Positions 7,964-19,938 of a stretch of 64,000 bases of DNA are shown in pieces (position 1 is the stretch's first letter; each line of letters begins with the position of its first letter). Both the position numbers and the translations under genes were made by a program. This stretch comes from Solirubrobacterales bacterium (GTDB lineage Bacteria; Actinomycetota; Thermoleophilia; Solirubrobacterales; JBBDJG01). The DNA is taken from NCBI GenBank assembly GCA_038330145.1, contig JBBQNR010000004.1, forward strand, positions 6,915 to 70,914. The letters run 5' to 3'. A model generated the notes under the pieces. It was not told the origin of the DNA and did not search any database. It worked only from the letters and a program-made list of their open reading frames with translations.

Positions 7964-8830
7964 TCACCAGCTGCGGTAGCGCTCCACCACCTCCAGCGCG
8001 GTGTGGCGGTCGATGTGGGTCCTGTCGGCCAGGAACCGGCGCAGCTCCTCCACCGCCGCCGTGCGGTCGTAGCCGCTTGCCGTCACGCGGGCCTCGTGAC
8101 GGATGGGCACGGCGTCGACGATCCCCAGCCGCCAGCTCCGCTCGAGCGCCAGCCCGCCCCAGTGCAGGTCGAGGCCCCAGCCCATTCGCAGCGGCGGAAA
8201 GGGCAGCAGGTCCCCGGACAGCGAGCGATGGAAGGCCGTCACCGGCCCGATCTCGACCATGCGCGTGCGCCGCGTCACCAGCCCGCGCGCCCGGCGGCAG
8301 ACCGACCAGGCTGCGTGGCTGGTGTGACGATGCGCCGGCTGCGCGAGCTGCAGGCCGAAGCGCTCGGCCAGGAACAGCATGCGGTCGAGAAAGCCGCCCG
8401 GCAGCGCAACGTCGTCGTCGATCGCCAGCACCCAATCGCGCTCGCCCGCAGGCGCGCTCTCGAGCAGCCGGTTGAGGTTCTCGAACTTGCCGCTGCCGCG
8501 CAGTCCCGTCGCGACCGTGTGGGCGGCGAGCGATGGCGCCGCGCCGTCGAGCGCGCCGAGCACGATGCTCACGTCGCGCTCGCTGTGCGAGAGCTCGCGC
8601 ATCGCTCGCTCCATGACGCCGGCGCAGTCCGGCGAGTAGATGCCGAGCACCAGAACGCTGCCGCTCGCTGCCGCGCTGGCGTCGCGAGCAAGTCGCGGCG
8701 GCACCAGCCGGGCCCAGAAAGCGCCGTCGTCGATCAGGTCCTTGGCGTGCGCGCGTGTGCGCGCCCGTGGGCCAAGCACGATGCCGCTCTCGCCCGACAG
8801 CAGACGGTCGACGTCGAGCTCAGTGCTCAC
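7964..8830 (-). CDS. Putative GT-A-fold glycosyltransferase-like protein (family not recognised)
   Basis: Codon usage is coherent and there is an acidic DxD-type motif (WVLAIDDDVALP). GTG 8830 lies 14 nt after the stop of the upstream GT2. The assignment is tentative. Confidence 0.45.
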   Translation of the reverse strand: MSTELDVDRLLSGESGIVLGPRARTRAHAKDLIDDGAFWARLVPPRLARDASAAASGSVLVLGIYSPDCAGVMERAMRELSHSERDVSIVLGALDGAAPSLAAHTVATGLRGSGKFENLNRLLESAPAGERDWVLAIDDDVALPGGFLDRMLFLAERFGLQLAQPAHRHTSHAAWSVCRRARGLVTRRTRMVEIGPVTAFHRSLSGDLLPFPPLRMGWGLDLHWGGLALERSWRLGIVDAVPIRHEARVTASGYDRTAAVEELRRFLADRTHIDRHTALEVVERYRSW

Positions 8831-11333: not shown

Positions 11334-12137
11334 CTAGTCGGCGGGCGCGACCGGCGGCCGGCGTCGCTCACGCAGGTACTGGCGCGCGAAGGCGGCGACG
11401 AAGGCTGGATTGGTGCGCGCGTAGCGGGGGAACAGCCGCAGCGGCTCCTGTGAGAGCCGGAACAGCCACTCGAGGCCGGTTCGCTGCATCCAGGCCGGCG
11501 CCTGGCGCTTGGTGCCGGCCAGGAAGTCGAAGGCGGCGCCGACTCCCATCAGGACCGGCGCATCCAGCTTCGATCGCATGCGAGCCATCCACTTCTCCTG
11601 CCTCGGCGCCCCGAGGCCGACGAACACGACGTCGGGGCTGTCCGCGTTGATGCGGCCCGCGAGCTGCTCGTCCTCGGCGGCGGTGTGCGGGCGATGCGGC
11701 GGCGACTCGGTTCCTGCGATCACGATGCCGGGATATCGCTGCCGCAGTGAGCGTTCGAGCTGCGCCAGCGCGTCGGAGTCGTGACCGCCGCAGAGCCAGA
11801 CGCGGTGGCCCCGCTCGGTGCAGCGCGCGCAGTAGCGGCTCATCAGCTCCGGCCCGTAGACGCGGTCGGGCAGGCTCTCGCCGAGCGCGTTCAGCGCCCA
11901 CACCAGCGGCCTGCCGTCGGGAACGGTGAGAGAGGAACCGGCCAGAGCAGCCCTCAGCTCCGGGTCGCTCCGCGACACCATCAGGGCGTGCACCGCGATC
12001 GCGCAGACGTAGCCGCGGTCACGCCGGGCGACGATGATGTCCATCACCTCGATCGCCTGCGCGTAGTCGGTCAGGGAGACCGGCACGCCGAGCAGGTCGC
12101 GGCGCGCGGGCAGCGCAACTCGACCTGCCGAGCTCAT
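11334..12137 (-). CDS. WecG/TagA/CpsF family (GT26) glycosyltransferase
   Basis: LLGVPVSLTDY..A..HALM.....LRAALAGSSLTVPDGRPLVW, VYGPELM, GLGAPRQEKWM, MGVGAAFDFLAG..RQAPAWMQRTGLEWLFRLSQEP.RL. Only the last 267 codons of the 843-aa track ORF are real. The start overlaps the upstream stop (ATGA). Confidence 0.85.
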   Translation of the reverse strand: MSSAGRVALPARRDLLGVPVSLTDYAQAIEVMDIIVARRDRGYVCAIAVHALMVSRSDPELRAALAGSSLTVPDGRPLVWALNALGESLPDRVYGPELMSRYCARCTERGHRVWLCGGHDSDALAQLERSLRQRYPGIVIAGTESPPHRPHTAAEDEQLAGRINADSPDVVFVGLGAPRQEKWMARMRSKLDAPVLMGVGAAFDFLAGTKRQAPAWMQRTGLEWLFRLSQEPLRLFPRYARTNPAFVAAFARQYLRERRRPPVAPAD

Positions 12138-13306
12138 GCCGCCAGCGCGCGTGCGTACACGTCCATCAGCCCACTGTAAAACCGCTCGGGACCGAACAGC
12201 TCGCGTGCGCGGTCGAGCGCCGCCTGACCCTGCTCGAGTCGCGCGTCCGCGTTCCCCCACAGCTGCTGCATCGCCGCGGCCCAGTGCGCGGGCGACCGAG
12301 CCGGAAGCGTCGCCTGCTCGCCGACCAGCTCGGGCAGGCCGCCGACATCGGACGCCAGCACGGGCAGCCCCGCGGCCATGCCCTCGATGGCGACGTACGG
12401 GCATGGCTCCTGCCAGCGCGAGGGCACGACGGCGAAGGCGGCCCGTTGCCTCGCCTCTGCGAGCTGAGCGGCGTTGAGGCGGCCGCTGAAGCGAACCACG
12501 GCCGCCCCGGCGGCCAGCCCCCGCAGGTGACCTGCCTGGGGCCCCTCGCCTGCCACCAGCAGCGGCACACCTGCGCGCGCCGCGGCCTCGACGACCGTGT
12601 CCAGTCCCTTCTCCTCGACCAGCCTGCCGGCGAACAGCGCATGCTCCCCCTGGTTGGCGTTGCTGGCCTGCACGAACTCGGAGGCCGGCAGGAAGTTGTG
12701 CAGCACGTCCATGCGGTCGGCCGGCATGCCGAAGCGCTCGAGCACGGTCGCGGCGGCGTGGCTCGGCACGACGAAGCGGTCGACGGCCGCCAGCACTCGC
12801 TTCTGCTGCGCGGACAGACCGGCGGCGTAGACCAGCGACTCCGGCAGGTTGCCTCGACAGCGAAGCCGCACGCCCGGCAGCGTGTCGCGGCCGTGGCAGC
12901 GCATGCAGGTTTCGCCGTCGCGGTAGGCGATCGCGATCGAGCAGAAGAGCCGGTAGTTGTGCAGGTGCATCACCACCCGTGCACCGGAGGTGCGCGCGGC
13001 CGCAAGAGCGCGCGGGCCGAGCAGCGGGGTGAGGTTGTGAACGTGGACGATGTCGGCGCCCGTCCGCTCCACGGCCGCGCGCACCTCGGCCGGCCGCAGC
13101 CCGCCGCGCAGCATCGCGACACCGCCGCGCGCCATTCCAAGCGGGCCGGTGAGCGCCTGGCTCGATCGCTCCAGCACCTGCACGGCATGCCCTCGCTCGC
13201 TCAGCAGCGCTTCGATCGCGGCCACCGAGCGCTCCTCGCCACCCGGCTCGCGGTAGCGGTTGTGCAGGAGCAGCACGCTCGGCTTGGGTTGTTCGTCCAC
13301 GTTCAT
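12134..13306 (-). CDS. Family 4 glycosyltransferase
   Basis: SVLLLHNRYREPGGEE at the N terminus and VVPSRWQEPCPYVAIEGMAAGLPVLASDVGGLPELV in the C-terminal half. GTG 13276 is an alternative start. Confidence 0.8.
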   Translation of the reverse strand: MNVDEQPKPSVLLLHNRYREPGGEERSVAAIEALLSERGHAVQVLERSSQALTGPLGMARGGVAMLRGGLRPAEVRAAVERTGADIVHVHNLTPLLGPRALAAARTSGARVVMHLHNYRLFCSIAIAYRDGETCMRCHGRDTLPGVRLRCRGNLPESLVYAAGLSAQQKRVLAAVDRFVVPSHAAATVLERFGMPADRMDVLHNFLPASEFVQASNANQGEHALFAGRLVEEKGLDTVVEAAARAGVPLLVAGEGPQAGHLRGLAAGAAVVRFSGRLNAAQLAEARQRAAFAVVPSRWQEPCPYVAIEGMAAGLPVLASDVGGLPELVGEQATLPARSPAHWAAAMQQLWGNADARLEQGQAALDRARELFGPERFYSGLMDVYARALAA

Positions 13307-13337
13307 GCGGTTGGGCGCGCAGCGTATTGTCCGCGGC

Positions 13338-14435
13338 GTGGCGGTTGCCCTGGTCACCAACTACCTGCCGGCCTACCGCATGCCTCTGTACACGCTGCTG
13401 GCGGAGCGGCACGGCGTCGAGGTGTACTGCTTCGGCGGCGAGGGTCACTACGTGCCGGAGGCGATGCGCGACCTCGATCGCCAGCTGGAGTCGGCTCCGT
13501 TTCCCGCCCATCGGCTCGAGCGCCAGCGAGACGCGGCCGAGCTGGCCGCAGGCCACGATGCGGTGATCGCCTCCACCGCCGGCAGGGTCGCGCTGCCGTC
13601 CGCCTATCGCGGGGCGCGACGAGCCGGCCGTCCCTTCCTGCTCTGGGCGTCGCTCTGGCGGCATCCGCGCACGGCGGCTCACCTGTTCTCGTTCCCGCTC
13701 ATGCGCAGCATCTACCGGCACGCGGATGCGGTCGTCACGTACGGGCCCCATGTGAGCCGTTACGTCGCCCACCAGCGCGGCGGCGACGATGGAGTCTTCG
13801 TCGCGGCGCAGGCCGTCGAGCCGCAGGTCTTCGCGCGTTCCGTATCCGAACAGGAGATCGAGCAATGGCGCAGGGAGACGGGACTCGACCGGGGGCCGTT
13901 GGTGCTGTTCGCCGGCCGACTCGTCGCCGACAAGGGGGTGGACGTGCTGGCGCGAGCCTGGCGACTGCTCGGCAACGACACCGGCGCAAGCCTCTGCCTG
14001 GTCGGAGACGGCCCGCTGGCGAGCGATCCGTCGATCGCCGACGTGCCCGGCATCACGGTCGCCGGGCGGCTCGACCGCCAGCGCCTGCCGGTCGCCTACG
14101 CGGCGGCGGACGCGGTCGTCGTGCCGTCTATCGCGACGCGCCGGTTCCTGGAGCCGTGGGGGCTCGTCTGCAACGAGGCGATGAGCCAGGGTCGGCCGGT
14201 CGTCGCGACGGACGCGGTCGGCGCGGTGGCGGGTGGGCTGGTGCGTGACGGCGAAACCGGGCTCGTTGTCGCGGCCGGCGACGAACGCGCGCTCGCGGCA
14301 GCGCTGCAGCGACTGCTCTCCGATCCGCAGCTGCGCTCAGACCTGGGCCGGCGCGCGCGCAAGGCCGTGGGTTACTACAACTACGAGCGCGCCGCGGCCG
14401 GGTTCGCCGCCGCGCTCGAGCACGCCCGCCGATAG
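13338..14435 (+). CDS. Family 4 glycosyltransferase
   Basis: VAVALVTNYLPAYR at the N terminus; FAGRLVADKGVD and VVPSIATRRFLEPWGLVCNEAMSQGRPVVATDAVGAVAGGLV in the C-terminal half. GTG 13338 was chosen as the start because ATG 13305 would overlap the divergent gene's ATG. Confidence 0.8.
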   Translation: MAVALVTNYLPAYRMPLYTLLAERHGVEVYCFGGEGHYVPEAMRDLDRQLESAPFPAHRLERQRDAAELAAGHDAVIASTAGRVALPSAYRGARRAGRPFLLWASLWRHPRTAAHLFSFPLMRSIYRHADAVVTYGPHVSRYVAHQRGGDDGVFVAAQAVEPQVFARSVSEQEIEQWRRETGLDRGPLVLFAGRLVADKGVDVLARAWRLLGNDTGASLCLVGDGPLASDPSIADVPGITVAGRLDRQRLPVAYAAADAVVVPSIATRRFLEPWGLVCNEAMSQGRPVVATDAVGAVAGGLVRDGETGLVVAAGDERALAAALQRLLSDPQLRSDLGRRARKAVGYYNYERAAAGFAAALEHARR

Positions 14436-14955: not shown

Positions 14956-15019
14956 CAGGGCTTCGAATAGGCCGCCGCCAGGTCGGTGGCAAGGGGCTCA
15001 GGCGTTATTGTCGCCCGCC

Positions 15020-15790
15020 ATGAAGGCGGTCATACTCGCAGGCGGGGTCGGCAGCAGGATCAGCGAGGAGACGCTCGTGCGGCCCAAGCCGATGGTCGAG
15101 ATCGGCAGCCGGCCGATGCTGTGGCACATCATGAAGACGTACTCGGCCCACGGCATCAACGACTTCGTGATCTGCCTCGGCTATCGCGGCTACATGATCA
15201 AGGAGTACTTTGCCAACTACCACCTGCACGCGTCCGACGTCTCGTTCGATCTCGCGGACAACAGCATGGAGGTCCACCAGGGCGCCGCCGAGCCGTGGCG
15301 GGTGACGCTGATCGACACCGGCGAGCAGACACAGACCGGTGGACGGCTAAAGCGTGTCCTCTCTTACGTCGACGAGCCCGAGTTCTGCTTCACCTACGGC
15401 GACGGCCTCTCGGACCTCGACATCTCGGGGCTGATCGACTTCCACCGCCAGCAGGACACGCTCGCGACGGTGACGGCCGTTCAGCCGCCCGGTCGCTACG
15501 GCGCGCTGGAGCTGCATGGCGACCGCATCACCGGCTTTCAGGAGAAGCCGCACGGGGACGAGGGATGGATCAACGGCGGCTTCTTCGTGCTGTCGCCGCA
15601 GGTCGGCGAGTACATCGAGGGCGACGAGACGATCTGGGAGCGCGAGCCGATGGAGCGGCTGGCGCAGGCCGGTCAGCTCGCCGCCTTCAAGCACGACGGC
15701 TTCTGGTACGCGATGGACACGCTGCGCGACAAGAACGAGCTGGAGTCCCTCTGGGCGTCCGGCCGGGCGCCCTGGAAGACGTGGTCCTAG
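15020..15790 (+). CDS. rfbF: Glucose-1-phosphate cytidylyltransferase
   Basis: MKAVILAGGVGSRISEET..RPKPMVEIGSRPMLWHIMK.YS.HGINDFVICLGYRGYMIKEYF.NY, and GGFFVLSP, PMERLA..GQL.AFKH.GFW..MDTLRDK..LE.LW. This is a very characteristic RfbF sequence. Confidence 0.9.
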   Translation: MKAVILAGGVGSRISEETLVRPKPMVEIGSRPMLWHIMKTYSAHGINDFVICLGYRGYMIKEYFANYHLHASDVSFDLADNSMEVHQGAAEPWRVTLIDTGEQTQTGGRLKRVLSYVDEPEFCFTYGDGLSDLDISGLIDFHRQQDTLATVTAVQPPGRYGALELHGDRITGFQEKPHGDEGWINGGFFVLSPQVGEYIEGDETIWEREPMERLAQAGQLAAFKHDGFWYAMDTLRDKNELESLWASGRAPWKTWS

Positions 15791-15809
15791 ACCCGGGACG
15801 GGTCCGGCG

Positions 15810-16892
15810 ATGAAGGTCGAACCGCAGTTCTGGCGCGGGCGCACCGTGCTCGTCACGGGCCACAGCGGCTTCAAGGGGAGCTGGCTCAGCCTCTGGCTCC
15901 AGACCATGGGCGCCGAGGTGGTCGGCTACTCGTCCGGCGGCACCGGCGGCCAGGCGCCGTCGGCGGGCCGCGCGCTGTTCGAGCAGGCCGGCATCGGCGA
16001 GGGCATGCGCTCGTTCGACGGCGACGTCGCCGACCCCGTGGCGGTGCATGCCGCGCTTGCGGAAGCCCGGCCGGAGGTCGTGATCCACATGGCGGCGCAG
16101 CCGCTCGTGCGCCGCTCCTACCAGGACCCGGCCGGCACCTACCGCACCAACGTGCTCGGCACCGTCGGGGTGCTGGAGGCGGTGCGGCAGAGCGACAGCG
16201 TGCGCGCGGTCGTCAACGTCACCACCGACAAGGTCTACGAGAACCGCGAGCTGGAGCGCGGCTACACCGAGGACGATCCGCTGGGAGGAAGCGATCCCTA
16301 CTCGAGCAGCAAGGCCGGCTCAGAGCTTGTGACGGCCGCATACCGGCAGTCGTTCTTCTCGGAGCAGGGGCCGGCGCTGGCGACGGCGCGCTCGGGCAAC
16401 GTGATCGGCGGTGGCGACTGGGGCGAGGACCGGCTGGTGCCCGACATCGTCAAGGCCGCGCTGGAGCAGCGCGCGGTGCGGATCCGCAACCCGAACTCGG
16501 TGCGCCCCTGGCAGCACGTGCTGAACCCGCTCAGCGGCTACCTGGTGCTGGCGCAGGCCCTGCACGAGTCGCGCGAGTTCGCGCAGGGCTGGAACTTCGG
16601 CCCCGACGCAGACGACGCCAAGCCGGTCGGCTGGATCGTCGAGCGCCTGCGCGAGCTGTGGGGAGAGGATCTGCGCTCGGAGCAGGACGCCGGCCCGCAT
16701 CCGCACGAGACCAATTACCTGCGCCTCGACTCCGGCAAGGCCCACGACCGGCTCGGCTGGCGGCCGGTCTGGAACCTCGACCGCGCGCTCGAGAGCATCG
16801 TCTCCTGGCACAAGGCGGTGCGCGACGGCGAGCACCCGCGCGAGCAGATGCTGGCGCAGATAGAGCAGTTCCAGCGCAGCGCGTCGGAGTAG
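15810..16892 (+). CDS. rfbG: CDP-glucose 4,6-dehydratase
   Basis: FWRGRTVLVTGHSGFKGSWLSLWL, TTDKVYEN, DPYSSSKA (SDR YxxxK), ARSGNVIGGGDW..DRLVPD, and RPWQHVL.PLSGYL. It lies 20 nt downstream of rfbF. Confidence 0.9.
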   Translation: MKVEPQFWRGRTVLVTGHSGFKGSWLSLWLQTMGAEVVGYSSGGTGGQAPSAGRALFEQAGIGEGMRSFDGDVADPVAVHAALAEARPEVVIHMAAQPLVRRSYQDPAGTYRTNVLGTVGVLEAVRQSDSVRAVVNVTTDKVYENRELERGYTEDDPLGGSDPYSSSKAGSELVTAAYRQSFFSEQGPALATARSGNVIGGGDWGEDRLVPDIVKAALEQRAVRIRNPNSVRPWQHVLNPLSGYLVLAQALHESREFAQGWNFGPDADDAKPVGWIVERLRELWGEDLRSEQDAGPHPHETNYLRLDSGKAHDRLGWRPVWNLDRALESIVSWHKAVRDGEHPREQMLAQIEQFQRSASE

Positions 16893-16913: not shown

Positions 16914-18923
16914 CTAGGGTGCCTGGCCCGGGGGCGCCCTGCGTGACAGCAGGTCGAGGTCGGCGTCGACCATCAGGCGCACCAGCTGCTCGAAGCTCGT
17001 GCGCGGCTCCCAGCCGAGCTGCTGCTTCGCCTTCGAGTAGTCGCCGATCAGGTGATCGACCTCGGCGGGACGGAAGTAGCGCGGGTCGGTGTCGACGTGA
17101 TCGGCGGGGTCGAGCCCGACATGGGCGAAGGAGACGTCGACCAGCTCGCGCACGCTGTGCGCCTTGCCGGTCGCGATCACGAAGTCGTCGGGCTCGTCCT
17201 GCTGCAGCATCAGCCACATCGCCTCGACGTAGTCCTTCGCGTAGCCCCAGTCGCGCTCTGCGTCCAGGTTGCCGAGCAGCAGCTTGTCCTGGAGGCCGAG
17301 CTTGATCGAGGCCACCGCGTGGGTGACCTTGCGCGTCACGAACTCCAATCCGCGCCGGGGACTGTTGCTGATCACCAGCTTGCCGACACCGGCGCACAGC
17401 TTCCCGCTCTCGGTCTCGATGTCGAAGTTCCACTTGCTCGGAGGCGCCTGAAGCGGTTCGATGCGACGGATCTCGGCGGGGTTCTTGACCAGGTGCGCCC
17501 CCTTGCCCCCGACGAGAACGCCTGAGCGAATGTTGAGTTGGTAGTAGACCGCCTTGTCACGCTGCTCCGCGTACACGGAGCAATCGCGCCCCTGAATCGC
17601 GTACAGCCAGACCAATCCCTGCGCGAGCACCGCGCTGTTGGTCTTGACCGAGTCACCACCGCCCTTCTTGAGGCCGTCGGCGGCGTAGTAGCCGTTCAAG
17701 AAGGCCTCCTGGACCTCGCGATCGCCGTTCAGGACCAGCGGCGGGACCTTCTTGAAGCCGTCCTTCGTATAGAGCTGTTCTCGCAGCCACAATCCAGTGG
17801 CCCGCGGAGCCAGCAAGGCGAGCTTTCCTACTTCACGATCCTCGTTGAAGCCCGACCTGCCAACCCAGTACTTGCTCGTGCCCAGGAAACATCTGGACCA
17901 CAGTTCGGCGACCCCGGCGCGCATGCTCTCGTCGTTGTTCGTGAAGTCGGTACGTCCGTCCGGGCGGACGCAGCCGTCTCCGACCAGAGCACCCAGCAGC
18001 TCCGCGAGCTCGGTCGTCAAGACGGACCAGGGAAGCGTCTCTGGAAGAGATTCCGCCAGCTTGAGCTCATCGCCACCCTCCAGCTCGCTTGCCGGTACCA
18101 CCTCGTCGTCGGAGCGGAGCATGTTGTGGTGCGCCGTTACCCCGACGACTCCCGCGCGAGCCTCGACGGATAGCGGCTGGTGCTCCGGGTCGCCGTCCCG
18201 TCGGCGTGTTGCCGTGACGGCGCGCAACTCCACCCAGTCATCGCCGTCCCAGATCTCGACGCCTTCCGGAGTGCAGGTCTGCACGCTAGGGCCTTTGTCA
18301 TGAACCGCCATCAGATCGGCGGGCGTACTGACCTCTACAACCCCGCCTGTACGCAATATCAAAGGAGTGTTCGACATAACGGATTCGTGATTGAAAAGTA
18401 GCCCTGAGCAGGCAAAAAGCTCGTAGGACTCGCGGTAGTTGACGGTGATGAAGTGGCCGTAGGCCTTCGCCACGCCGTAGGGGCTGCGGGGGTAGAAGGG
18501 CGTCTTCTCCGTCTGCGGAACCTCGAGCACCTTGCCGAACATCTCGGAGGAGGAGGCCTGGTAGAAGCGCGCTTTCGGCGCGACCTCGCGCATCGCCTCC
18601 AGAATCCTCGTCACGCCCACCCCGGAGAACTCGGCGGTCAGCACGGGCTGGTTCCAGGACGCCGCGACGAACGACATCGCCGCCAGGTTGTAGATCTCCT
18701 CCGGCTCGCAGGCACGCATGACGTCCCCGAGTGAGCGCTGGTCGAGCAGATCCCCCGTATGGAGCGTGAGGCGGTCGCGGATGTGCTCGATGCGGTCGAA
18801 GGTCTCGGTCGAGGAGCGCCGCACCATGCCGTGCACCTCGTAGCCCTTCTCGAGCAGCAGGTCCGCAAGGTAGCTGCCGTCCTGGCCCGTTATGCCGGTG
18901 ATCAGCGCCCTTCGCTCACTCAT
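16914..18923 (-). CDS. gmd: GDP-mannose 4,6-dehydratase precursor containing an in-frame intein (669 aa precursor; 329 aa after splicing)
   Basis: N-extein: RALITGITGQDGSYLADLLLEKGYEVHG..SF..SW..P..TAE....GV.RILEA....YQASSSEMFG..PQ.E.TPFYPRSPYG.AK.YGH.ITVNYRESY.LFACSGLLFNHE. C-extein: SPRRGLEFVTRKVT.....KLG.Q..L.LGNLDA.RDWGYAKDYVEAMWLMLQQDEPDDFVIATG. Together these form a complete Gmd. Confidence 0.9.
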   Translation of the reverse strand: MSERRALITGITGQDGSYLADLLLEKGYEVHGMVRRSSTETFDRIEHIRDRLTLHTGDLLDQRSLGDVMRACEPEEIYNLAAMSFVAASWNQPVLTAEFSGVGVTRILEAMREVAPKARFYQASSSEMFGKVLEVPQTEKTPFYPRSPYGVAKAYGHFITVNYRESYELFACSGLLFNHESVMSNTPLILRTGGVVEVSTPADLMAVHDKGPSVQTCTPEGVEIWDGDDWVELRAVTATRRRDGDPEHQPLSVEARAGVVGVTAHHNMLRSDDEVVPASELEGGDELKLAESLPETLPWSVLTTELAELLGALVGDGCVRPDGRTDFTNNDESMRAGVAELWSRCFLGTSKYWVGRSGFNEDREVGKLALLAPRATGLWLREQLYTKDGFKKVPPLVLNGDREVQEAFLNGYYAADGLKKGGGDSVKTNSAVLAQGLVWLYAIQGRDCSVYAEQRDKAVYYQLNIRSGVLVGGKGAHLVKNPAEIRRIEPLQAPPSKWNFDIETESGKLCAGVGKLVISNSPRRGLEFVTRKVTHAVASIKLGLQDKLLLGNLDAERDWGYAKDYVEAMWLMLQQDEPDDFVIATGKAHSVRELVDVSFAHVGLDPADHVDTDPRYFRPAEVDHLIGDYSKAKQQLGWEPRTSFEQLVRLMVDADLDLLSRRAPPGQAP
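17364..18383 (-). mobile_element. Intein with a LAGLIDADG homing-endonuclease domain, inserted in gmd (340 codons)
   Basis: The insertion splits the conserved Gmd motif NHE|SPRRG. It starts with Ser (SVMSNTPLIL..) and has a block-B-like VTAHHNML. Two LAGLIDADG motifs are present (LAELLGALVGDGCV and EAFLNGYYAADGL). It ends ..KWNFDIETESGKLCAGVGKLVISN, followed by a +1 Ser. GC is lower than in the host gene (sample lines about 45-62%). Confidence 0.85.
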
Positions 18924-18948: not shown

Positions 18949-19938
18949 TCATCGGCTCCATTCTCGTTGACTCAAGACGTCACCCGGCGCCGCCACCCGC
19001 TCCCTCCACCAGTCGAGCGTGTCGCGCAACGTCTGGTCGAGCGGGACCCGCGGCTCCCAGCCGGTCGCGCCGGTCAGCTTGTCGTGTGAGGCTCTGATCT
19101 CCATCACCTCGTGCGGTCGCAACCTGCCGGGATCGGTTCGCTGCCTCACCTCCAGCGACGAGTGGCCGGCGAGCGCCGCGAGGATATCCGCGATGGAAGT
19201 CGCCACGCCGCTGCCGACGTTGTAGACGCCGGGCTCGCCCCGCTCCAGCGCAAGCCAGTATGCGCGCACGACGTCGCGCACGTCGGTGAAGTCGCGTCGC
19301 GGCTCGAGGTTGCCTGTCACCAGCTCGACGCTGGCGTTGCCGGCCGCCTCGGCTTCCGCTATCTGGCGTGCGAACGCGGACACCACGTAATCGTCCGACT
19401 GCCCGGGCCCGGCATGGTTGAAGGCGCGCGTGCGCACGGTGCTGAGGCCGTGCGCGTCGCTGTACATGCCGCCCAGCAGGTCGACCGCGGCCTTGCTGAC
19501 CGCGTAGGGGTTCTGCGGCGAGAGGCGTGCGCGCTCGTCGACCGGCAGCGACTCGGGTGCGCCGTACTCCTCGCCCGAGCATGCGAGCAGCACCTGCGCC
19601 GACGGCGCTTCCGCGCGCAGCGCCTCGAGCAGGTTGACCGTCATCTCGACGTTGCGGGTGATGGTGCCGCCGGGGTCCTGCCACGAGCGCGCGACCGCGG
19701 CCTCGGCGGCGAGATGGAAGACCAGATCTGGCTGCGCCGCGCGAATGCACTCCCTGGTCTGATCGGCGTCGAGCAGGTCGCAGCGCAGGTACTCCGATGC
19801 GCGTGAGGCGACGCCGGCATCCGGCTCGGCCTTGAGGCCGGTCCCGATCACGGTCGCCCCCTGCTGCGAGCAGACCGCGGCCAGGTGACCTCCCGCAAAG
19901 CCGGCGATGCCGGTGATCAGCGCGCGCACGCCGAGCAA
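18949..19938 (-). CDS. rmd: GDP-4-dehydro-6-deoxy-D-mannose reductase (GDP-D-rhamnose synthase, Rmd-like SDR)
   Basis: Colinear by eye with characterised Rmd enzymes: RALITGIAGFAGGHLA, FHLAAEAAVARSW.DP..T...NV..T.NLLEA.R, L.CSGEEYG, PQNPYAVSKAA, RTRAFNH.GPGQS..YV.SAFA.QIA.AE, VTGNLEPRRDFTDVRDVVRAYWL, YNVGSG, LRP.EV....AS..KL...TGW.P. It sits immediately upstream of gmd. Confidence 0.7.
   Translation of the reverse strand: MLGVRALITGIAGFAGGHLAAVCSQQGATVIGTGLKAEPDAGVASRASEYLRCDLLDADQTRECIRAAQPDLVFHLAAEAAVARSWQDPGGTITRNVEMTVNLLEALRAEAPSAQVLLACSGEEYGAPESLPVDERARLSPQNPYAVSKAAVDLLGGMYSDAHGLSTVRTRAFNHAGPGQSDDYVVSAFARQIAEAEAAGNASVELVTGNLEPRRDFTDVRDVVRAYWLALERGEPGVYNVGSGVATSIADILAALAGHSSLEVRQRTDPGRLRPHEVMEIRASHDKLTGATGWEPRVPLDQTLRDTLDWWRERVAAPGDVLSQREWSR

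Follow-up and report, generated by a model that had tools for sequence, protein, structure and literature searches.

A probable class 1 intein containing a LAGLIDADG endonuclease domain in the most conserved loop of a GDP-mannose 4,6-dehydratase from Solirubrobacterales

What interrupts the gene for a GDP-mannose 4,6-dehydratase (Gmd) in its most conserved motif, and what becomes of the enzyme? The question is raised by a stretch of 64,000 nucleotides from a Solirubrobacterales bacterium (contig JBBQNR010000004.1 of assembly GCA_038330145.1), here called the window, in which a gmd open reading frame (ORF) of 669 codons contains a block of 340 amino acids. A sequence-only reading had interpreted the block as a full-size LAGLIDADG intein. 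Our analysis makes it very probable that a class 1 intein, itself holding a LAGLIDADG homing endonuclease, occupies the most conserved loop of Gmd. The translation agreed with the length of the ORF and with the position of the block, exactly between the Glu and the Ser of LFNHE/SPRRG (slashes mark splice junctions). The boundaries are ...LLFNHE/SVMSNTPLIL..., the latter being residues 1-10 of the insert, and ...GKLVISN/SPRRG.... The precursor gene is composed as follows:

16914..18923, minus strand: gmd precursor ORF, 669 codons plus stop, GDP-mannose 4,6-dehydratase split by the putative intein (ORF, Pfam, NCBIfam).
18384..18923, minus strand: N-extein, Gmd residues 1-180, ending ...LLFNHE (alignment to solved Gmds; 93 % identity to the N-extein of the closest relative, L003).
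17364..18383, minus strand: putative intein, 340 amino acids, 36.9 kDa, precursor residues 181-520 (translation, Pfam, structure model, family profile).
16917..17363, minus strand: C-extein, 149 amino acids, starting SPRRGLEF (translation; alignment to solved Gmds).

Judged from its sequence, the host protein is a GDP-mannose 4,6-dehydratase. The precursor matched NCBIfam TIGR01472 (gmd) with 444.5 bits, above the equivalog cutoff of 415, and Pfam GDP_Man_Dehyd with an E-value of 1e-131, each match consisting of two stretches with a break at about residue 184. Removal of the block left, as had been predicted, a normal Gmd of 329 amino acids, which aligned end to end and without a gap at the junction to the Gmd of Pseudomonas aeruginosa (1rpn, E 1.7e-128) and likewise to that of Aquifex; comparison with intein-free Gmds placed the insertion point exactly. 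When 52 diverse Gmd sequences were aligned, the interrupted LFNHESPRRG ranked first for conservation among 319 windows of 10 residues, and NHES was present in all five aligned solved Gmds (E. coli, P. aeruginosa, Aquifex, Arabidopsis and Naegleria). Such a location, in the most conserved window of the host, is typical of inteins. The notion that the insert might be a conserved domain of a Gmd subfamily fails, since the 120 proteins closest to the window extein (83-89 % identity) were all 319-392 amino acids long and thus intein-free. The insert therefore behaves as a class 1 intein should: it lies in frame in a conserved motif, its removal restores the host protein, and intein-less alleles exist.

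The motifs named in the sequence-only reading (Ser1, VTAHHNML, LLGALVGDG, LNGYYAADG, terminal Asn and Ser+1) were all found in their places:

18381..18383, minus strand: codon TCC of Ser1, the predicted N-terminal nucleophile; most relatives have Cys (translation, family alignment).
18117..18143, minus strand: block B, GVTAHHNML, intein residues 81-89, with T83 at 18135-18137 and H86 at 18126-18128 (family alignment).
17499..18026, minus strand: LAGLIDADG homing endonuclease domain, approximately residues 120-295 (Pfam PF14528; Foldseek matches of the I-DmoI, I-SceI and PI-SceI class; ratio of nonsynonymous to synonymous substitution rates, dN/dS, about 0.1).
17973..18008, minus strand: LAGLIDADG motif 1, LAELLGALVGDG, residues 126-137, with the predicted catalytic D136 at 17976-17978 (alignment).
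17673..17708, minus strand: LAGLIDADG motif 2, EAFLNGYYAADG, residues 226-237, with the predicted catalytic D236 at 17676-17678 (alignment).
17388..17432, minus strand: block F, WNFDIETESGKLCAG, residues 318-332, with D321 (F:4) at 17421-17423 and Gly327 at the usual position of the block-F His (profile alignment).
17364..17387, minus strand: block G, VGKLVISN, residues 333-340, with penultimate Ser339 at 17367-17369 and terminal Asn340 at 17364-17366 (translation, alignment).
17361..17363, minus strand: codon AGT of Ser+1, the predicted C-extein nucleophile, which is the native Ser of the NHES motif (translation, alignment).

The catalytic set of a class 1 intein is complete: Ser1, Thr83/His86, Asp321 (F:4), Asn340 and Ser+1. 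Both LAGLIDADG motifs retain their acidic residues (LLGALVGD136G and GYYAAD236G). Among 51 relatives, H85, H86 and N340 were invariant, T83 was present in 50, and D136 and D236 were nearly invariant; Ser+1 and Asn340 occurred in all 81 complete alleles. Of the 121 columns conserved to 90 % or more, the window intein deviated at only 5, each time by a conservative change; three of these changes, all in the LAGLIDADG-1 and -2 helices, were common to the window intein and L003.

Does the insert also fold as an intein would? A Pfam scan detected LAGLIDADG_3 (PF14528) with 29.6 bits (gathering threshold 22.5). Neither Intein_splicing nor Hint matched this sequence in the Pfam/NCBIfam scans, where apart from LAGLIDADG_3 the insert gave only weak matches to the intein-bearing VMA, RpoA'' and DnaB models. 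Because these HINT models gave no match, the HINT fold was established via structure prediction. The AlphaFold2 model of the intein, calculated with 51 homologues in the alignment, reached a predicted local distance difference test (pLDDT) of 91.7 and a predicted template modelling score (pTM) of 0.91. The top Foldseek match was 7qsu (E 1e-20), followed by 7qss, 7qst, 2cw7, 1dq3 and PI-SceI; by protein, the neighbours were in order TliVMA, PhoVMA, PI-TkoII, PI-PfuI and PI-SceI. TFIIB mini-inteins matched the HINT part of the model (target-normalised TM-score 0.70 for 5o9i), while I-DmoI, I-SceI and WhiA matched the endonuclease part. The latter has the pseudo-dimeric alpha-beta-beta-alpha-beta-beta-alpha fold, over about 180 columns of which I-DmoI, I-SceI and I-Tsp061I matched with probability 1.00. 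In the model, the HINT splicing domain comprises approximately residues 1-112 and 300-340, and the two-motif LAGLIDADG endonuclease is nested between them at approximately 120-295. The two domains that the sequence-only reading had proposed to look for were thus recovered, the endonuclease above the Pfam threshold and both as predicted folds.

The sole sequence relatives in the PDB were endonuclease-containing inteins, namely TliVMA (7qsu/7qss, about 2e-6 in phmmer) and, weakly, PI-SceI. A family profile, built from 17 members, aligned to TliVMA from block B (vTahh/VTPIH, in which T83-A-H-H86 provides the TxxH) via both LAGLIDADG motifs to block F (vfdletesg/VYDITTETH), with an E-value of 2e-14. 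The Thermococcales V-ATPase subunit A inteins TliVMA and PhoVMA (7qss, 7qsu, 7qst) are therefore the best matches in both sequence and structure. They are alike in belonging to class 1 and in having a two-motif LAGLIDADG endonuclease inserted into the HINT domain at the canonical position. They differ in that identity is only 17-19 %, they are archaeal, and their host site is an ATPase P-loop rather than the short-chain dehydrogenase/reductase (SDR) type of sugar-nucleotide dehydratase found here; they also have Cys1 and, in TliVMA, a block-F His, where the Gmd intein has Ser1, Gly327 and Ser339. The Sce VMA1 intein PI-SceI, PI-PfuI and PI-TkoII likewise combine a splicing domain with a LAGLIDADG endonuclease (Foldseek E 1e-14 to 1e-8), but they are larger (454-537 amino acids), possess extra DNA-recognition region or stirrup domains, and reach TM-scores of only 0.4-0.6. 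Two further assignments were ruled out. A class 3 intein would carry the WCT triplet (Trp-Cys-Thr in block B, F:4 and block G), which is absent, Ser1 being present and F:4 being Asp321. In the case of a bacterial intein-like (BIL) domain, the invariant Ser+1, the presence of an endonuclease and a site that is the most conserved in the host all argue against it.

From sequence and model we infer that splicing proceeds by the standard four steps, via Ser1, Ser+1 and Asn340. The gmd gene would be translated as a 74-kDa precursor, predicted to be inactive because its NHESPRRG loop is split. Ser1 would perform an N-O acyl shift at Glu180-Ser181, aided by Thr83 and His86 of block B; the N-extein would be moved to the hydroxyl of Ser+1 by transesterification; cyclisation of Asn340 would free the intein; and an O-N shift would restore the native peptide bond. 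This should yield a Gmd of 37.1 kDa, its LFNHESPRRG whole again, and a free intein of 36.9 kDa.

Two features of the insert weigh against this interpretation. At its C-terminal end, NFDIETESGKLCAGVGKLVISN, Asn340 is preceded by Ser339 and followed by Ser+1, so that the penultimate His (block G:6), which is highly conserved in inteins though not obligatory, is missing; and the block-F His of TliVMA corresponds to Gly327 in the window intein and to Gly throughout the family. With both usual helpers of Asn cyclisation absent, the third step may be slow or rely on other residues. Candidates for help with the cyclisation, judged by their conservation, are the extra His85, which is invariant, and Arg/Lys335, which is nearly so. 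The same absences could be taken as signs of a HINT/LAGLIDADG domain that has been domesticated or has degenerated and no longer splices, the 669-residue protein being a functional enzyme or the product of a pseudogene; Ser nucleophiles are, moreover, intrinsically weaker than Cys. We regard this as highly improbable. The essential class 1 residues are all kept (Ser1, T83, H86, D321, N340 and Ser+1), the reading frame is open throughout, purifying selection on the exteins is strong (dN/dS 0.125 between the window and L003), and the insert breaks the most conserved motif of the enzyme. The penultimate Ser, which had been described as non-canonical, is indeed unusual, but it recurs in the family, where 30 of the 81 complete alleles end Ser-Asn, all of them in frame. 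It also has precedent in splicing-competent inteins: mycobacteriophage inteins with a penultimate Gly, Lys or Ser splice, and these residues may even speed the reaction (PMC5050341), so that loss of the His is not evidence of inactivity. Other class 1 inteins that splice with a non-His residue before the terminal Asn, such as Ssp DnaE, are covered by references 74 and 87 of PMC4031507. An upstream block-F His has been suggested as a stand-in for the penultimate His (PMC5050341); this distinguishes the Gmd inteins, whose Gly at that position makes the stand-in unavailable.

How widespread is the element? A protein search with the intein alone returned 190 homologues, with E-values down to 2e-127 and 49-64 % identity over the full length, a resemblance in sequence that is homology and not chance. 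Among the 120 listed of these 190, all but one carried Gmd domains, the exception being a 264-residue intein-only fragment (P0101). In a species-level scan (one genome per species), 185 genomes encoded a relative. The best 80 of these were almost all metagenome-assembled genomes (MAGs) of Solirubrobacteraceae, Solirubrobacterales and Thermoleophilaceae, with single MAGs of Myxococcales, Anaerolineales, Pyrinomonadaceae and Chloroflexia also among them; overall the same-site family spans Actinomycetota, Myxococcales, Anaerolineales, Chloroflexia and Acidobacteriota. Wherever both halves of the extein could be placed and the assembly had no frameshift, the intein lay in frame, directly between them, and at this one site. 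Two MAG contigs from ENA assemblies had the intein-bearing gmd called split or frameshifted (L001:9357-11380 and L002:10001-13140), one having its N-extein as a separate gene of 180 amino acids and the other an out-of-frame C-extein; these are probably assembly errors or pseudogenes, and wrong annotations are to be expected in such cases. The closest relative, L003, comes from an uncultured Solirubrobacterales MAG, and its intein is 73-74 % and its extein 92 % identical to those of the window, a resemblance that puts the window in the same order.

When 1.84 billion cluster representatives were searched exhaustively, 619 matched. Many of these were proteins of 660-760 amino acids with the intein starting at about residue 180-200, flanks of the form NHE/...N/S.RRG, and identities down to about 27-35 %, indicating that the Gmd site has long been occupied by a diverse intein family. 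One metagenomic Gmd (P0284, 1087 amino acids) carried two inteins, at NH(E/S)/S and at YQAS/SSEMFG; the latter is the catalytic Ser/Thr-x-Glu motif, and its window ranks second for conservation in Gmd. More distant relatives resided in glycosyltransferases of families 1 and 2 (GT1 and GT2) and in one family B DNA polymerase. Related LAGLIDADG inteins, 25-31 % identical and apparently with Ser1, were seen in a GT1 glycosyltransferase (P0355, 751 amino acids) and in a protein combining GT2 and a methyltransferase (P0358, 834 amino acids). Inteins of this lineage may thus recur in enzymes of glycan synthesis.

The family varies naturally at its splice junctions. In the 81 complete alleles residue 1 was Cys in 63 and Ser in 18, and the C-terminal pair was His-Asn in 50, Ser-Asn in 30 and Lys-Asn in one. 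The combinations were not free: Cys1 with His-Asn (50), Ser1 with Ser-Asn (18), Cys1 with Ser-Asn (12) and Cys1 with Lys-Asn (1) were found, Ser1 never occurred with His-Asn, and the penultimate residue was Ser in 18 of 18 Ser1 alleles. Partial sequences near the window intein ended Lys-Asn or Gly-Asn. In a neighbour-joining tree the window intein and L003 formed a deep branch outside the main Ser-Asn clade, within which Cys1 and Ser1 switched several times; such repeated switching suggests that the coupling of Ser1 and Ser339 does not go back to a single ancestral event, though a neighbour-joining tree on p-distances is weak evidence. Seven distant same-site Gmd inserts (P0292, P0298, P0316, P0324, P0333, P0340 and P0375) putatively start with Thr after NHE (NHE/TVTSFM..., ...VHN/SPRRG). 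A Thr1 nucleophile would be very unusual for an intein.

Is the element also mobile? The free intein would cut an intein-less gmd across the insertion point, TTC AAY CAC GAR / TCN CCN CGN CGN GG, and repair from the intein-bearing allele would then copy the element into the cut gene. At the level of the family, several observations point in this direction. The intein is patchily distributed, the 120 closest exteins being without it. In close pairs dN/dS was 0.03-0.06 for the extein and about 0.10 for both the HINT and the endonuclease domain, so the latter is maintained without decay. One related protein (P0078, 520 amino acids) contained a shortened intein of 325 amino acids in which the second LAGLIDADG motif is destroyed (AFLMAYEEAAGPGPTNS); in the homing cycle, endonucleases are expected to decay in this way. 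Pairwise identities of intein and extein were only moderately correlated (Spearman 0.42), and two pairs were discordant in opposite directions. Between L020 and L030 the flanking genes were 92-95 % identical (synonymous divergence, dS, 0.10-0.19) and the extein 99 %, while the inteins were only 74 % identical, with a dS of 1.07; between L009 and L017 the flanks had a dS of 0.37-0.58 and the extein 0.50, but the intein only 0.21. This implies replacement or transfer of the intein independently of the host gene and, as discordance was seen in both directions, indicates ongoing homing in the family. As far as sequences and model go, the family is both mobile and conserved under purifying selection, its homing being supported indirectly.

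For the lineage of the window itself, and in part for the family, several results limit the case for mobility. Between the window and L003 the flanking genes were 65-71 % identical in amino acids (dS 0.7-0.85) and the inteins 74 % (dS 1.1-1.5), so that the flanks are about as diverged as the intein and vertical descent suffices; once calibrated with these flanking genes, the dS discordance was rejected as proof of transfer of the window intein. The G+C content at third codon positions (GC3) was 0.80 in the intein and 0.90 and 0.94 in the exteins, and it was also below that of most neighbouring genes; a weaker codon bias may be part of the cause for the excess of intein dS over extein dS. A search of phage and plasmid collections for a related intein, as a possible vector, found none.

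We infer, with less confidence than for splicing, that the endonuclease of the window copy is active. A substantial if lesser probability must be given to an intein that splices with an inactive endonuclease, a fixed passenger inherited vertically whose endonuclease domain is kept only for folding or splicing. The divergence from L003 is compatible with this, and so are lineage-specific swaps of small residues beside the catalytic Asp in both LAGLIDADG helices, G135 (Ala in 50 of 51 relatives) and A235 (Gly in 48 of 51). Some inteins are known whose endonuclease domain is inactive although the rest is intact; PMC8966425, the source of 7qss, 7qst and 7qsu, describes two inteins, one with an active and the other with an inactive endonuclease domain. 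Yet D136, D236 and a near-invariant KTNS motif are intact, deviations affect only 3 of 70 conserved endonuclease columns, and the helix swaps are themselves conserved, since the window shares them with L003 despite an intein dS above 1. The endonuclease domain also has a dN/dS of 0.20 between the two, and inteins have been replaced between close genomes elsewhere in the family.

If the family is homing, do hosts resist it? In the 120 closest intein-free alleles (P0122-P0241) the residue equivalent to Ser+1 was Ser in 85, Gly in 31 and Ala in 4, and 19 of the 26 closest had Gly or Ala. Intein-free gmd loci include:

L083:8001-8990: intein-free gmd.
L084:8001-9023: intein-free gmd.
L085:3001-3990: intein-free gmd.
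L086:3001-3984: intein-free gmd.

The first of these (P0143) lies in a gene cluster of the same order as that of the window and can be regarded as an empty site. The motif reads NHEGERRGR in L083, NHEAPRRG in L084 and NHESPRRG in a further intein-less allele, L087. An allele that lacks the +1 nucleophile cannot host a splicing intein, and accompanying changes in the DNA may spoil the endonuclease target. In L083 the 18 nucleotides after the empty insertion point (8541-8558, GGG GAA AGG AGA GGA AGG) differed from the window flank at 10 positions, against a gene average of 15.8 %. This stretch holds all three AGR Arg codons of L083 gmd; rare AGG/AGA codons at the empty site were nevertheless dropped as a pattern, because the cluster of L083 is absent from another GERRGR allele, L086. 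Gly or Ala at +1 may, as a hypothesis drawn from these alignments, be host escape from intein invasion. It is tempting to go further and speculate that a live arms race between Gmd inteins and the host gene takes place in soil Thermoleophilia, with escape via +1 Gly or Ala on one side and, in the window lineage, a co-adapted chemistry of steps 1 and 3 on the other. The strict pairing of Ser1 with penultimate Ser, without a thiol nucleophile and without either His helper, would imply such a distinct arrangement. We consider this combined picture tentative and, as a whole, rather unlikely.

What depends on the enzyme can be judged from the genes next to gmd:

18949..19938, minus strand: extended SDR protein closest to GDP-6-deoxy-D-lyxo-4-hexulose reductase (Rmd), upstream of gmd in the same orientation (best solved relative 2pk3, 2e-69).
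15008-16892, plus strand: glucose-1-phosphate cytidylyltransferase (TIGR02623, 449 bits) and CDP-glucose 4,6-dehydratase (TIGR02622, 453 bits), converging on gmd (NCBIfam).

Gene order was the same in the window and in L083: the Rmd-like reductase and gmd; on the opposite strand CDP-glucose 4,6-dehydratase and glucose-1-phosphate cytidylyltransferase; then two glycosyltransferases of family 4 (GT4) and WecG. Since the CDP-glucose genes stand beside gmd, the cluster would make both a CDP-6-deoxyhexose and a GDP-6-deoxyhexose. The supply of D-rhamnose proposed in the sequence-only reading is thus plausible, the neighbour being closest to the 2pk3 reductase, but not proven; Gmd may supply the glycan cluster around it with GDP-D-rhamnose or a different GDP-6-deoxyhexose. 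In an ORF of 843 amino acids (11334-13865, minus strand) the WecG/TagA domain is confined to residues 645-815, and GC3 is 0.69, against 0.87-0.95 in neighbouring genes; the ORF is probably over-extended upstream of its real start.

It had also been proposed that splicing is potentially conditional, and one may ask whether it is a regulated step that gates GDP-D-rhamnose or glycan synthesis, the intein being kept for the benefit of the host. An insertion in the active-site loop makes activity strictly dependent on splicing, and its rate could be tuned by the non-canonical termini, in the way that a phage intein is affected by its penultimate residue (PMC5050341). We nevertheless judge this improbable, and the proposal found no support. 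The sequence contains no sensor feature, Ser1 and Ser+1 rule out disulfide or redox control and make the known thiol/redox switches inapplicable, and the closest Gmd alleles are intein-free. Distribution and discordant divergence are, rather, what is predicted for a selfish homing element.

How novel is the element? Its kind is thoroughly known. Nucleotide-sugar enzymes had been called rare hosts; the intein in Gmd is neither rare nor unique, given its large same-site family, and there is precedent in Euryarchaeota, where ten inteins of UDP-glucose/GDP-mannose dehydrogenases (COG1004) are listed in the main text of the survey PMC4760082. These differ from the Gmd intein in enzyme family, in insertion site and in domain of life. 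The same main text lists no Gmd, and our literature search found no description of a Gmd intein, which does not prove absence, the survey being covered by its main text only; the site may be uncatalogued. Source databases name these proteins plainly GDP-mannose 4,6-dehydratase. Intein-bearing genes are filed under that name, often as split or partial, and their recognition corrects many gene models in Thermoleophilia MAGs.

The findings extend the hosts of inteins beyond the usual replication and repair proteins and ATPases to a sugar-nucleotide enzyme with a well-populated intein family, and the related inteins in glycosyltransferases and the second insertion site in Gmd widen this range further. 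The family is of interest mainly for its size, its natural variation, and the indications that homing continues and that hosts may escape it. A single site with natural variation at residue 1 (Cys, Ser and possibly Thr) and at the penultimate position (His, Ser, Lys, Gly and Ala) offers a test bed for the co-evolution of splice-junction chemistry. The discordant divergence of inteins, together with Gly or Ala at +1 in empty alleles, makes the family a tractable case for the study of homing and host resistance in uncultured soil bacteria.

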